In this document: one piece after another, positions 39,862 through 62,384 of the stretch | How positions within the stretch are numbered: the stretch's first letter is position 1 | How the letters are laid out: each line of letters opens with the position of its first letter | Virus record (IMG/VR): IMGVR_UViG_3300028591_000095 | Span: 102,641 to 166,640 of that record | DNA: 64,000 nucleotides | Strand: one strand, 5' to 3' | Origin: a virus | Lineage: Duplodnaviria > Caudoviricetes | The notes under the pieces: generated by a model | The model's input: the letters and a program-made list of their open reading frames with translations, nothing else | Database searches by the model: none | Told to the model about the DNA's origin: nothing | Made by a program: the position numbers and the translations under genes

Positions 39862-41625
39862 TTAGTTCCATCTAGCTGGAGGTGTTTTAGGAGGTTTAGA
39901 AGATTTCTTTGTTTGTTGTGGTTTTGGAGCTGATCCAAACATGGTAACACCAGTTGTATCTACAGGAGCTCCACCTGCAGCCTGCTGACGAGCATCAAAA
40001 TCATTTGTTGCGTCGAGAATAGCTGTATCGATTTTCAGCATAGTGTTTATGTCATGATTGATTGCAGCAAGGATCTTTGTGAATCCTTTAGTAACAACAC
40101 CGAGTTGTTTAATTGAACGCATCCAGAGATCATGGTTTGTCTGATAGAGTCCTGGTCTACCTTCAAGATCTTTAAGATGCTCAGCAAGTTGTTCAGTCCA
40201 TTCTGCAGCTTGTTGTGTTGCAGTCAGACATTGTTCTGTCATATTGTAGAAGTTTGCAGAAACCTTTTCATTATGTCCAACCCAATTACCAGCATCATCC
40301 TGATTAAATCCAAGCTTATCAACTTTATGATTGGGCGTTGCACCGAATAATATCGACTTGATATAGTCTTCATTTGAATCATTTATGATAACTTTTGTTT
40401 TCAAAAGTTGCATACCATTAATTGCACGGAGACCTTGTTCGATGTTGGATATTCTAACACCATTGGTATCAATAAGAAGAGGGCTACCCTGACGATGATA
40501 TCCGCAAGCAGCTGCAATAAACTCTGTTGTCTTATATGCAGTACCAGCAAACAACATAAGGTCCTGATAGTCAAATCCTTTCTTGAGATCATACATGTAG
40601 AATGAATATCCTTTAGAGAATATACCAGATAATCTGTTGTATTTCAACCACTCTCTGATCTGATTACGTTTTACACGACTACGTCTCATATGTTCTTTTA
40701 CAAGACTTCCAAGTTTTATAAAGAACTTTACGATCTTCTTGATCTGAGATATAATCCAACCAAGAGGACTCTGTCCTTCAGTAACACTCTTAGGTTGAGT
40801 ATTTACATTCAAAACAGCTTCAGTGTAGAACTCGGAATAGTTCTCAACACGTGAACAGTATTCATTTACAAGTGATGAATAAGTTGATTCTTCCATCATA
40901 TCAAGTAATACTTGCGACTGGAGAATGAAACTTTCCTGTTGAGCAATCTCTTCTTTGGTTTCATCAAACTCTTCATCACTCATAGGTCCGCCGGATACAG
41001 ATATCTTGTCAATTGTAGTAACAATTGCAGTATCTTCATCCATACCCTGACCGATGAGTTCCTCGTATTCTTTCTTTACTTCTGGATCCTTTGGTTCATA
41101 TTTTTCACCAGTAATCAGCGACTTAGCATACATCAGCTGTTCAAGATGAAATCTCTCTTCACGACCAATGTCACCGTATAAACGTGAAAGGTTTGTATCA
41201 ACTGTATTGGTTGTTGCATCGAAGTAGTCGTTGATAGCATCAGATTCTGAAGAAATAAGTTTGTTGAGTATTTCAACATCTTTTTCATTGTACTGATTGT
41301 TTGGTACATCAGGACCACCATGTTTACCGAAGTCCTTGAGATCATAGTCATCAGGACCTTCAGTGGGTTTCGGTTCATCATCTTTTGGTTCAGTATCAGG
41401 TTCTTCATCATCAAGTGATGGCATGTCACCTGGTTCAGAATCATCTTCATCTTCATCTTCAGTTTCATCATCAGATGATTCTACCTGTTTTTCATCAACA
41501 GTTTCATCTTCGAGATCTGAATGAAGGTTGTCTGGATCTTCTTCGAGATCTTCAGTCTCTTCTATCTCAGGTTCCTCAGCTTTATCAGCTTCAAGAATAA
41601 TGAATCCTTTGTTGTCTGTAAACAT
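39862..41625 (-). CDS. Putative head protein with acidic leader, ferritin-like domain and tagged C-terminal unit
   Basis: LISSESDAINDY...DIGREERFHLEQL; then QQES, FYTEA and amphipathic helix LGWIISQIKKIVKFFIKL. Confidence 0.65.
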   Translation of the reverse strand: MFTDNKGFIILEADKAEEPEIEETEDLEEDPDNLHSDLEDETVDEKQVESSDDETEDEDEDDSEPGDMPSLDDEEPDTEPKDDEPKPTEGPDDYDLKDFGKHGGPDVPNNQYNEKDVEILNKLISSESDAINDYFDATTNTVDTNLSRLYGDIGREERFHLEQLMYAKSLITGEKYEPKDPEVKKEYEELIGQGMDEDTAIVTTIDKISVSGGPMSDEEFDETKEEIAQQESFILQSQVLLDMMEESTYSSLVNEYCSRVENYSEFYTEAVLNVNTQPKSVTEGQSPLGWIISQIKKIVKFFIKLGSLVKEHMRRSRVKRNQIREWLKYNRLSGIFSKGYSFYMYDLKKGFDYQDLMLFAGTAYKTTEFIAAACGYHRQGSPLLIDTNGVRISNIEQGLRAINGMQLLKTKVIINDSNEDYIKSILFGATPNHKVDKLGFNQDDAGNWVGHNEKVSANFYNMTEQCLTATQQAAEWTEQLAEHLKDLEGRPGLYQTNHDLWMRSIKQLGVVTKGFTKILAAINHDINTMLKIDTAILDATNDFDARQQAAGGAPVDTTGVTMFGSAPKPQQTKKSSKPPKTPPARWN

Positions 41626-41637
41626 TATATCACTTCC

Positions 41638-42645
41638 TTATATTACATATTCTTTGTATGATTTAATTACATCAGGGTCGATCTTATTAATTGCATTTGA
41701 TAAGTTTGTTATGTACATATTATGATACTCAAGGAGTTTCTTAATTTTAGCAGCATACTCCGCAAATATCTGTGGAATAGCACTATTAATTTCCAAGAGT
41801 TTCTGAATGTCTTCCTTGGTTGGTATTCTGCCAATCTCGACAAGATTTCCATCTATAGTAAAACCACACTTTGGTGTCACTCCGACAACCGGAGGTTTAA
41901 CATCACCGAGATTATTTTTAATATCCTTTTCAAGTCCGATACCATTGTTAATGCTTTTACATACATTACTTACATTTACTTCAAATGAAAATTCTTTAGA
42001 TTTCATAATTGATAACATCTGACCGTTGAGTGCATCTTTTGTCTCAGCATTATCAACTTCTTTACAGAATATCGAAAAATCTGATTCCTTTTTCGAGAAG
42101 TATGGAAAGAATAGTGCTGTTATACGTGTTTTCATATCAGCATCGCTTCCATAGCCAATTGGAATATCATCAGTACCTTCCAAAATCCGTGTAATTCCTT
42201 TAGCTAAACGTCTGGAAATCGTATCAGTGTTCAGATCATTAACCCAAGCTAATAAGTGGTTGTTAATACGGTTATACAACTTCTGAGGTTTTTCAACAAT
42301 ATAAACCTTAGCATTTGCATTTTTACCTTTGAAATGTCTGGGTTCAATGTATCTGAGATTCTTCACAACAGTTGGGATGAATTTGAATATAGCAGTGACG
42401 ATTTTCTTGATTATTGCAAGAACACGTTTAATGATAGATTCTTTCTTCTGAGGTGTTTCACCATCTTCATCATCCCAATCATCATAGGAGTTATCTTCAG
42501 ATTTACTGAAACCGAGATCGTTCTTAACATTATCCCAGAATCGTGTCAATCTTCCCTCCTGATAGAACGGGTCTTCTGATCTTGTTGCTTCTACTGATTC
42601 CATGAATGTTTCAAATGGAACCAGTTTGATTGAATTAGTATCCAT
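41638..42645 (-). CDS. Tagged head-protein family member
   Basis: KLVPFETFMES...FYQEG...IIKRVLAIIKKIVTAIFKFIP. Confidence 0.65.
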   Translation of the reverse strand: MDTNSIKLVPFETFMESVEATRSEDPFYQEGRLTRFWDNVKNDLGFSKSEDNSYDDWDDEDGETPQKKESIIKRVLAIIKKIVTAIFKFIPTVVKNLRYIEPRHFKGKNANAKVYIVEKPQKLYNRINNHLLAWVNDLNTDTISRRLAKGITRILEGTDDIPIGYGSDADMKTRITALFFPYFSKKESDFSIFCKEVDNAETKDALNGQMLSIMKSKEFSFEVNVSNVCKSINNGIGLEKDIKNNLGDVKPPVVGVTPKCGFTIDGNLVEIGRIPTKEDIQKLLEINSAIPQIFAEYAAKIKKLLEYHNMYITNLSNAINKIDPDVIKSYKEYVI

Positions 42646-61326: not shown

Positions 61327-61419
61327 GTTTAACTGTGCCAGAGCTTGTTCAACATAGATATCACCGACAGATACATCTTCAGATACTGACTCTGCGATAT
61401 AATTATCAAGTGTTGACAT
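60433..61419 (-). CDS. Tagged head-protein paralog A
   Basis: IYQEGFF..GKLKKFGKSILSGPRKIWSFIKAAATAVATAATNLWRF. Confidence 0.7.
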   Translation of the reverse strand: MSTLDNYIAESVSEDVSVGDIYVEQALAQLNVAYSLVASYAKDVAYVEYMAEMNGVDIYQEGFFTESDKGDDGSDEGDKGKKEPGKLKKFGKSILSGPRKIWSFIKAAATAVATAATNLWRFITEKNLAKCAEKLRADTSNKTYTVSSLFESSLGNIIDITDKFANQIDSIISSLSQGTEYGEVTISAETFKFSASDLRAKQMTGPQLAVLIDKAIKADTKERLKRIIKNLKDSIDNVNKLDKEQFKNLEKGSYYKTNKYINAEVYKKCCDAAKVITDAYTAFLKDLKHISNQVLKDVKKNNKNSGGGKPEPPKKDEGDGDGNGGGDE

Positions 61420-61436
61420 ATGAACAACCCCCTTTC

Positions 61437-62384
61437 TTAGTTAGTACCAACTTCGTTTATTGCATAAACGGAATCGCCGAATGCTGTTGTGATTGAATCA
61501 ACAACTGAAGAAAGGTTTGAAGTCCACTTCTTGATGTCGTCGTTGATACCTTCGCAAGAACGTGTAACTCTCTTAGCCTTAAGAGTGTCATTGTCCATGC
61601 ACTTGTGCATATTTGCGATTGCAGCCTTCTTGCTCTTGCTGGTTGTTGAAGCAACATCCTTTGAGATGTTGAGAATTGTGTAAAGAGCTATTGCCATCTG
61701 GACAAAATCCTTTGACTTAGGAGAATCTGTGTAGTGTGATCCTCTTGAAGTGATCTTGTCTGTTGCAAGAGCTTTACCGCCGTCTGTGATCTTGCTTTCG
61801 ATACATCTTACAGTTGAAACCTCTGAAGCTTTACTAGCTTTACCAACGATACCAGAAATGATATTGTCTGTTGTCTCAACAGAGAGACCGTATGCAGCCA
61901 TAAGATTGATCATACCCTTGCAGTATGACTCAGCAAGCTTTACAGCGTACTTACCCTTGATGAATTTCTTATCTGAGAACTTAGCACCGGAAATCTTTGA
62001 AGCGAGGTTGTTAACGAACTCCTCAAAGTTACCACCGAGTGCAATGCCGTTCTTCTTACCGAATGCGATCAGGAGCTTCATGTCCTTGTCACATGCAGTC
62101 TGTACTTTCTTAGCAGTATTATTAATAAGATCATAGAATGCAATGAGCTGTTGTTTTACAGCTTCGCATGAAACGCCTGTTGCTCCTTCTTTGTCTGTAG
62201 GAAGACCAGCTTCTGCAGCTTCCTGAATACACATAGAATCGCACTCATCGTTTACAATGCTGCATTCGAGTGCAAATATAGCATTTGAAACATTGATTTT
62301 ACCCTTAGCTTCTTCGATGTATGCATCGATGTCTGAAGCATCTCCACATGCAACGTCAAGCATCAGTTCAGAATACTTATTCAT
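61437..62384 (-). CDS. Putative head protein
   Basis: Leader resembles the downstream paralogs (DAYIEEA..INV..A..A), then IQEA. Confidence 0.55.
   Translation of the reverse strand: MNKYSELMLDVACGDASDIDAYIEEAKGKINVSNAIFALECSIVNDECDSMCIQEAAEAGLPTDKEGATGVSCEAVKQQLIAFYDLINNTAKKVQTACDKDMKLLIAFGKKNGIALGGNFEEFVNNLASKISGAKFSDKKFIKGKYAVKLAESYCKGMINLMAAYGLSVETTDNIISGIVGKASKASEVSTVRCIESKITDGGKALATDKITSRGSHYTDSPKSKDFVQMAIALYTILNISKDVASTTSKSKKAAIANMHKCMDNDTLKAKRVTRSCEGINDDIKKWTSNLSSVVDSITTAFGDSVYAINEVGTN

Follow-up and report, generated by a model that had tools for sequence, protein, structure and literature searches.

Within a window of 64,000 nucleotides at the end of a linear IMG/VR contig of 166,640 bp (IMGVR_UViG_3300028591_000095, positions 102,641 to 166,640; CheckV completeness 62%), an array of genes at 39862-62384 encodes proteins that are likely to be packaged into the head of an AR9/phiKZ-like jumbo phage and processed there by its head protease. 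The packaged proteins are probably also ejected. Motif enrichment, conservation, modularity and genomic context were computed, and from these we infer packaging, cleavage, the fate of a conserved helix, and ejection. In the mechanism proposed here, each precursor would open with an address module of two parts: an acidic helical leader ending in Φ-Φ-Q-E|G/A/S, where Φ is hydrophobic and the bar marks the predicted cut, followed directly or after a short acidic linker by a cationic, strongly amphipathic helix of ~25 residues, with a variable body behind it. The module would carry the precursor into the assembling prohead, where an S80-type head protease would cleave after the Glu, as it is predicted to do in the capsid protein and in itself; the leader would then be discarded or retained on the shell, and the mature protein would bear the amphipathic helix as its new N-terminus. 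Labels of this kind are already known, from the capsid-targeting sequence (CTS) of T4 and the propeptides of phiKZ and SPN3US, and what is new is the two-part tag and its Φ-Q-E|G rule.

The phage itself is an uncultured AR9/phiKZ-like jumbo phage with multisubunit RNA polymerase genes and a head protease that is probably of the S80 (phiKZ) type. Genes for beta-type subunits are present on the contig, and the closest cultured relatives of the RNA polymerase subunits, at 24-30% identity, are found in AR9/PBS1-like Bacillus phages, S6-like phages of Staphylococcus, Yersinia phiR1-37, Listeria LPJP1 and the JD-Fnp phages of Fusobacterium.

A common N-terminal module in the array

A simple call of open reading frames (ORFs) on the whole contig gave 145, of which 17 lie in the array, whose borders match ORF borders, and 128 elsewhere. 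Every ORF of the array is on the minus strand. A strict form of the predicted site, [ILVFYMC]QE[GAS] within the first 65 residues, is present in 11 of the 17 array ORFs as against two of the 128 others (Fisher p 9e-11). Named, like all array genes here, by the window coordinate at which they start, the 11 are 41638, 42635, 43878, 45001, 49229, 50126, 51415, 56935, 59483, 60433 and 61437, with sites at residues 19-59; the two ORFs outside the array encode the head protease and the virion RNA polymerase beta subunit. Shuffling of residues across the whole proteome predicts 0.97 N-terminal strict sites where 13 are observed, and sites deeper inside the contig's proteins are likewise enriched (14 observed, 4.7 expected). 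The N-termini of the array form about five sequence families and the sites are therefore not independent, yet the enrichment survives when it is counted by family.

Six genes (41638, 42635, 43878, 45001, 49229 and 51415) have one N-terminal module in common, in which an LxPFExxMxS leader is followed by QE|G and then by a GKGxxE..KF[IL]PRL helix. The leader motif is present in five of them (41638, 42635, 43878, 45001 and 49229) and the helix motif, in the form GKGx[ND]E....K..KF[IL]PRL, in four (42635, 43878, 49229 and 51415). When all array proteins were compared with one another by BLAST, these last four proved similar in their first 80-120 residues only, and 45001 and 49229 over ~45 residues; among the bodies, similarity was confined to the pair 59483/60433 (50% identity, full length). 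The long leaders of the array carry a net charge of about -5 to -14. In windows of 25 residues after the cut, the net charge is +4 to +9, the hydrophobic moment 0.6-0.8 and the mean hydrophobicity near zero, and these charges and moments are consistent with surface-seeking cationic helices.

Much of this had been anticipated in a first, sequence-only reading of the window. Its counts of five leaders and four helices are confirmed in the translations, as is the succession of acidic leader and basic amphipathic helix (with the charges and moments just given) and the dissimilarity of the bodies outside the pair at 59.5-61.4 kb. It had proposed testing the motif for enrichment in virion as against non-virion proteins, and had cautioned that short QE motifs arise by chance, with the VQEG of the DNA polymerase as its example; that site is present, at residue 442. 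Its figure of about 14 co-oriented tagged ORFs was correct as to orientation and generous as to number, since 11 have strict sites, 39862 has relaxed ones only, and those of 46008 and 53146 are internal.

The probable cutting rule of the head protease

Φ-Q-E|G/A/S, with P2 sometimes M, Y or T, is very probably the cutting rule of the phage's own head protease, because the same motif marks the border of the capsid propeptide and both ends of the protease. The protease, a protein of 303 aa (genome 64683-65594), matches phrog_3014 (E 3e-11) and a second PHROG family of head maturation proteases (E 4e-8), and scores 23.0 bits (E 5e-5) against Pfam Peptidase_S80, the family of phiKZ gp175, whose curated cut-off is 23.4. 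In an alignment with orthologs from two relatives, G004 (complete, 294.5 kb) and the distant G005, GELNHP and FS[VA]R motifs are conserved. Its N-terminal site reads FVQE|A, and FIQE|S in G004, and the orthologs share a further site ~80 residues from the C-terminus (HQE|S, YME|A, LQE|S); C-terminal self-cleavage is established for T4 gp21 and SPN3US gp245 (PMC5694885, PMC10052503). In the major capsid protein (genome 59214-61325; phrog_20655), five phages of the clade have F[L][IV]QE|SYN[VT]S.YLPL directly ahead of the conserved core, which leads to a predicted propeptide of ~122 residues, as in phiKZ-like phages. Sites are also retained in the orthologs of 61437, 56935 and 39862 despite protein identities of only 27-52%, or 35-50% overall. 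Across the tag family described below, P3 is F in 51%, Y in 22% and I in 21%, and P2 is Q in 91%. The rule suggests that a head protease of the S80 family has moved to a T4-like hydrophobic-x-Glu rule.

Two proteins encoded elsewhere in the window also carry the motif. The virion-type RNA polymerase beta subunit (5294-9580, minus strand, 1428 aa) starts with M..YQE|A, its site at residues 4-7, a possible very short propeptide. An 859-aa protein encoded at 29213-31792 on the plus strand, which has no family match and lies among replication genes on the strand opposite to the array, has five strict sites (LQE|S at residue 92, YQE|A at 107, IQE|G at 145, YQE|A at 333 and IQE|G at 562) as well as relaxed ones, and could be a head polyprotein or scaffold-like protein that is cut into pieces.

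A two-part tag in metagenomic proteins

A profile built from the aligned N-termini of the six related array proteins (alignment A1) was searched against 1.84 billion representative proteins clustered at 50% identity, and found 156 representatives at E<=1e-3, 14 of them at E<=1e-10. The shortest of these proteins has 60 aa and the longest 1634, nearly all of them match at the N-terminus (residues 20-100), and all those looked up are unnamed metagenomic proteins. Library scans found no Pfam, PHROG or NCBIfam model that covers the module, and a search of IMG/VR with back-translated peptides of the same alignment found no relatives. Anchored on the site, the consensus reads [IFV][FYI]QE|G.I[LM]D.A.GKGK.ES...KI..FIPRLI.AI, with E(-1), D(+5), P(+25) and R(+26) invariant and a spacing of 22 residues between the cut and FIPRL in 87 of 140 members. 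In the array, 42635, 43878, 49229 and 51415 match the module at E 4e-18 to 4e-23. A second cut at ILDE|A, seven residues past QE|G, was considered and rejected: Glu is at +6 in only 22% of members.

The leaders of the family have a median length of 54 residues (138 members; 24-61 in the array) and a mean charge of -10, and the helix region a mean of +5.4. The commonest, type B (ID.I....ESE.DVL..L..SY.K....EN), is ~54 residues long; type A, with LxPFExxMxS, is found in a minority of members. Both are found joined to the FIPRL helix, and type B without that helix heads 59483/60433, two genes at genome 73024-74346 and 74837-75958, and the genes at the same locus in two close relatives (L007/L008). 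Leader and helix are thus two parts that recombine separately. The two genes just mentioned lie outside the window (G000:C1:73024-74346 and 74837-75958, equivalent to L005:5925-7247 and 7738-8859, minus strand), in the head module after genes for proteins of 719 and 815 aa; they are 67% identical over the first 37 residues, which make up leader B, and have CME|A and YME|A near residue 36, followed by a basic amphipathic helix.

Unrelated bodies behind one tag

The 132 bodies found behind the tag fall into 53 BLAST clusters. When the 11 clusters with at least three members were compared as profiles, one of the 55 pairs proved related, and a Pfam scan left 52 of the 53 representatives without a domain, the sole exception being a GNAT. 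The joining of the module to so many unrelated bodies, together with the repetition of its cassettes in DNA (see below), is what marks it as a portable label. Full FIPRL modules also occur internally, each after an acidic stretch, in two metagenomic proteins (P0032 and P0040), and the broader unit of acidic stretch, Glu cut and basic helix is found in at least five unrelated N-terminal families as well as inside polyproteins. Direct evidence of tag swapping on one body comes from the 719-aa protein of the head module (G000:C1:67474-69633; L005:375-2534, minus strand), which is orthologous to a body family that is FIPRL-tagged in other phages. Here it has no FIPRL tag, and begins instead with an N-terminal region of 245 residues that is acidic before the site FYQE|A at residue 243.

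Inside the bodies, strict sites occur at chance level (11 observed, 11.2 expected), and there is thus no second conserved cut beyond the helix. Since the better-conserved part of the module lies downstream of the predicted cut, with no second cut behind it, the helix probably stays on the mature protein.

The sequence-only reading had proposed a modular tag on variable cargo. The modularity is borne out by the presence of the same module on at least 53 BLAST-unrelated bodies in metagenomes; as to the cargo, the array bodies hold a coiled coil (43878), a papain-fold/GNAT polyprotein (46008) and a weak ferritin-like segment (39862). The coiled coil stands as proposed. The variety of function is mostly unsupported: 52 of 53 body representatives lack a Pfam domain, the polyprotein with the enzyme domains is not tagged at its N-terminus, and the resemblance to ferritins is weak.

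A variable island in a conserved virion block

Searches of related phages by tblastn recovered a conserved block made up of 62483, 61437, 59187, 58780, 57322, 56935, parts of 46008, 39862 and the ligase gene 37201. In the same relatives, tblastn found no body orthologs of 41638, 42635, 45001, 49229, 51415, 53146, 59483 or 60433; 43878 has a full-length ortholog in one relative only (G008), and 50126 a weak match in one other (G006). From the neck gene to the ligase there are 11 genes in 17 kb here as against three to four genes in 4.7-6.7 kb in the relatives. The array thus forms a variable island, made up of accessory tagged genes, within a conserved neck/virion gene block. In G004, the relative with a complete genome, only about eight ORFs have a strict site at the N-terminus, spread over several loci, and there is no canonical FIPRL gene; other members of the clade, with capsid proteins 62-71% identical, have one to four FIPRL or leader-B genes each, which adjoin the capsid-protease module or surround the neck gene.

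The 5' cassettes of the tagged genes are repeated in DNA, with 62-82% identity over ~100 nt (82% between 49229 and 43878), and these repeats would allow recombination between cassettes. The repeat takes in an upstream TATATGAAA element and, in two cases, a GC-rich hairpin; hairpins of the form CCCCGG..CCGGGG stand ahead of two cassettes, at 45948-45999 and 51352-51403. The six minus-strand copies of TATATGAAA all lie within the array (43881-43889, 45004-45012, 45944-45952, 50124-50132, 53137-53145 and 56853-56861), five of them ahead of a start codon, at a distance of ~15-25 nt, and the sixth overlapping one. The element may be a late promoter or leader element, and when W is allowed at position 2 and both strands are counted, its nine occurrences against 4.8 expected are not a significant enrichment.

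The role of the module

Several results weigh against the view that the array proteins are packaged and processed by the head protease. The proteins are known from sequence alone, in a phage whose host is uncultured; paralogy inflates the raw motif counts; and none of the internal head proteins studied by experiment was found to be homologous in sequence, PF12699 (phiKZ_IP) having no match on the whole contig at E<=10. A tblastn search with the tags against 50,697 GenBank phage records gave no match. The match of the protease to the Pfam S80 family falls just below the curated cut-off, a phmmer search with the protease against sequences in the PDB found no solved homolog, and the known S80 enzymes favour a small P3 (S/A/G in phiKZ, A in SPN3US) rather than an aromatic one. 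An AF2 model of the tag of 43878, built with 142 aligned sequences (pLDDT 66, pTM 0.35), whose helices are shown at moderate confidence and whose tertiary packing is unreliable, has one helix at residues 25-55 that spans the cut and another at 63-87 that is the FIPRL helix; QE|G would therefore sit within a long helix, which is unusual for a protease site. Finally, conservation is highest past the predicted cut, so that QEG could in part be a structural feature of the domain.

In the main alternative, the FIPRL helix, not the leader, would be the real address, and would bind either a core protein or the HK97-fold shell from within, in the manner of a scaffolding helix or an encapsulin cargo peptide. 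As with gp93 and gp162 of phiKZ, the helix, or else all of the N-terminal region, would remain fixed to the capsid, and the leader would only mask or solubilise the helix. Such an arrangement would account for the better conservation of the post-cut segment, with its invariant D+5, P+25 and R+26, for the joining of the same helix to leaders A and B, and for the lack of a second conserved cut past the helix, and it has a parallel in phiKZ, in which the N-terminal fragments of cleaved inner proteins have been seen bound to the inner capsid surface (PMC11297242). We nevertheless consider it unlikely, as leader B is also found with quite different helices (59483/60433; genome 73024-75958; L007/L008) and must therefore have a conserved role of its own, and because in T4 the targeting information resides in the propeptide (PMC9026906).

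It could also be imagined that the module is a sorting or membrane-anchoring signal of infection proteins that never enter the virion, the helix acting as an anchor or within a signal for import or secretion, with QEG as a structural element rather than a cut site. The helix is hydrophobic enough to invite the idea, the best 19-residue Kyte-Doolittle windows of the tagged array proteins scoring 1.0-1.9, so that some could be called transmembrane by a predictor, and 43 of 140 family members exceeding 1.6; the bodies, moreover, have no assigned function. This is very improbable, however, given that the same four-residue motif occurs at the capsid propeptide border and in the protease, that four to nine positive charges and a high hydrophobic moment speak for a surface-seeking rather than a transmembrane helix, that the genes lie in virion modules beside those for capsid, protease and neck, and that copies are found within polyproteins. 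More improbable still is an ordinary, fast-diverging paralog family whose N-terminus was kept by descent and whose bodies are homologous beyond recognition, with no portable tag, an explanation that mostly helical bodies without domains, cassettes duplicated in DNA and body profiles so shallow that remote homology could be missed would permit, and that is opposed by the 60-1634 aa span of the family, by 53 BLAST clusters with one of 55 profile pairs related, by tags within polyproteins, by an orthologous body that is tagged elsewhere and untagged here, and by a body that is a GNAT enzyme.

If the array proteins are packaged and processed as proposed, it is tempting to ask what the helix might do afterwards. 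One tentative idea, which we regard as rather unlikely, is that the module is a pro-helix device. In the cytoplasm, the amphipathic helix, cationic and membrane-active, would be neutralised by the acidic leader, much as antimicrobial peptides are by their acidic pro-pieces. The protease would not arm it until it lay within the closed capsid, and after ejection the helix would anchor the cargo at the host membrane or carry it across. If true, this would be a general rule for ejected proteins in the clade and would give a sequence handle on the ejected proteome of a jumbo phage. More broadly, the conserved post-cut helix raises the question of whether it serves shell binding or membrane action. 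The tag rule and profile offer a means of predicting which proteins a whole clade of uncultured jumbo phages loads into its heads. Among such proteins, which reach the host before any others, anti-defence factors are likely, and related phages might in time be made to package foreign proteins by means of the module.

Genes of the array

Beginning at the high-coordinate end, 61437 (61437-62384) encodes a core tagged protein of 315 aa with predicted cuts at YIEE|A (residue ~24) and CIQE|A (residue 55), both of which are retained in its orthologs in L007-L009 as AY[IV]QE|A and [IV]QE|AA..AGLP. Next come the two accessory tagged paralogs, 60433 (60433-61419; 328 aa, leader type B, predicted cut IYQE|G at residue 61) and 59483 (59483-60433; 316 aa, predicted cut IYQE|G at residue 59). 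The leader of 60433 matches its profile at E 5.5e-6, an acidic linker and a basic helix lie beyond the predicted cut, and tblastn found no ortholog in the relatives.

The following genes belong to the conserved block. Two small untagged ORFs of 130 and 94 aa (58780-59471) have orthologs in L007-L010 and a weak sheath-like PHROG match, and are part of the virion block. The untagged 454-aa protein at 57322-58686 is conserved at 65% identity in relatives and falls in a PHROG family of unknown function; by Foldseek, its AF2 model (pLDDT 64) matches the phiKZ neck chain 9xps_w (E 5.8e-15) and the tail terminators of T4, T5 and lambda. As modelled, it is a neck protein and ties the array locus to the virion module. 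The genes around its homolog in Listeria LPJP1 are all annotated as hypothetical. Beside it, 56935 (56935-57198) encodes a core protein of 87 aa with an acidic leader of 21 residues and a predicted cut at VQE|A, and its orthologs retain [VTY]QE|[AS]Y at the equivalent position.

In an accessory polyprotein of 1230 aa (53146-56838), for which tblastn found no ortholog in relatives, a tag-like unit recurs at residues 243, 526 and 763; it consists of an acidic stretch, a site of the form Y[YQM]E|[SA] and a basic amphipathic helix. The FIPRL-tagged accessory protein 51415 (51415-53142; 575 aa) has a predicted cut at LYQE|A, residue 52, and matches the post-cut profile at E 7e-20; library scans and a search of the ESM Atlas gave no usable match for its body. 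Its neighbour 50126 (50126-51331; 401 aa) has an acidic leader of 24 residues, a predicted cut at VFQE|A and a basic helix. Residues 23-225 of this protein, directly after the predicted cut, align with residues 264-429 of an 865-aa protein (25% identity, E 2e-4) whose gene (G000:C1:51432-54029) adjoins a 3034-aa tape-measure-like gene.

Leader A introduces 49229 (49229-50110), an accessory FIPRL-tagged protein of 293 aa from its ATG with a predicted cut at IIQE|G. The multi-domain protein 46008 (46008-49226; 1072 aa) matches DUF6582-like, papain-fold Gln_amidase and GNAT domains, and has, in place of an N-terminal tag, internal VQE|S and VQE|G sites at residues 541 and 691; parts of it are found in relatives, and a metagenomic relative, P0032, is the one with an internal FIPRL tag. 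Leader A is also present in the next four genes. Two of these combine it with an acidic insert and a degenerate helix: in 45001 (45001-45930; 309 aa, predicted cut VFQE|G) the helix is hydrophobic and matches the post-cut profile at E 0.012, and in 41638 (41638-42645; 335 aa, predicted cut FYQE|G at residue 30) it ends in ..KFIPTV and matches at E 2e-6. The other two are FIPRL-tagged, 43878 (43878-44984; 368 aa, coiled-coil body) with a predicted cut at IIQE|G, residue 47, and the accessory protein 42635 (42635-43867; 410 aa) with one at VIQE|G, residue 50.

The last gene, 39862 (39862-41625), encodes a core protein of 587 aa with a very acidic N-terminus, a ferritin-like segment, two relaxed sites, a basic amphipathic helix and then the body. 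It has no strict site, its relaxed ones being ILE|A at residue 10, YTE|A at 267 and VTE|G at 281; the orthologs in L007 and L008 start with strict VQE|G and YQE|S sites. Residues 110-173 resemble a two-helix segment of the EncFtn/ferritin-like kind, with SE..AI..Y and EERFH motifs, the matches in two libraries (EncB family) being weak and far below the family cut-offs. If true, a ferritin-like cargo in an HK97-fold phage head would parallel the encapsulins.

Comparison with known systems

In T4, a CTS of 10-20 residues on the internal proteins IPI-III and on Alt is removed by the prohead protease gp21 (PMC9026906). The tag described here resembles it in being a single N-terminal leader on otherwise unrelated, variable proteins, in a predicted cut after Glu in a hydrophobic-x-Glu context, a motif that recurs, at the level of sequence, in both the capsid protein and the protease, and in marking a set of proteins that differs between related phages. 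It differs in the length of the leader (24-61 residues, with a family median of 54) and in the conserved segment of 45 residues past the cut. The protease, too, is probably of the S80 (phiKZ gp175) type and not S77, there is no sequence similarity to the T4 system, and the S77/gp21 profile PF03420 has no match on the whole contig.

The second comparison is with phiKZ and SPN3US, which are likewise jumbo phages with a virion multisubunit RNA polymerase and have long acidic propeptides, sometimes with several Glu cuts. In SPN3US, long propeptides are cut at multiple positions after Glu by gp245, and the cutting rules are A-x-E there and S/A/G-x-E in phiKZ (PMC5694885, PMC10052503). All S80 and S77 enzymes studied so far have Glu at P1, as is proposed here; the rule Φ-Q-E|G, with its hydrophobic P3, is unlike that of SPN3US and phiKZ and nearer to that of T4 gp21. 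The sequence-only reading likened the array to the phiKZ-like internal proteins that are cut after Glu. The lineage, a protease probably of the S80 type and the P1 Glu speak for this; the proteins are, however, not members of PF12699 and their sites do not follow the S/A/G-x-E rule of phiKZ. As a whole, its interpretation is partly supported and right in kind, with the corrections that the tag has two parts, that the better-conserved part comes after the cut, and that the functions of the cargo are mostly unassigned.

The family A proteins of phiKZ (gp93, 94, 95, 162 and 163; PF12699) are, like those of the array, paralogous, with N-terminal regions that are cleaved in phiKZ and a copy number that varies between phages. 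The inner-body proteins of phiKZ are, however, homologous throughout, whereas here only the N-terminal module is common. A precedent for the proposed mature form is SPN3US gp47, whose mature N-terminus is a predicted hydrophobic or membrane helix and whose gene position is hypervariable among relatives (PMC5694885), an ejection protein that opens with a hydrophobic helix once it has been processed. But gp47 is a single protein, and the tag described here is a portable module on dozens of bodies.

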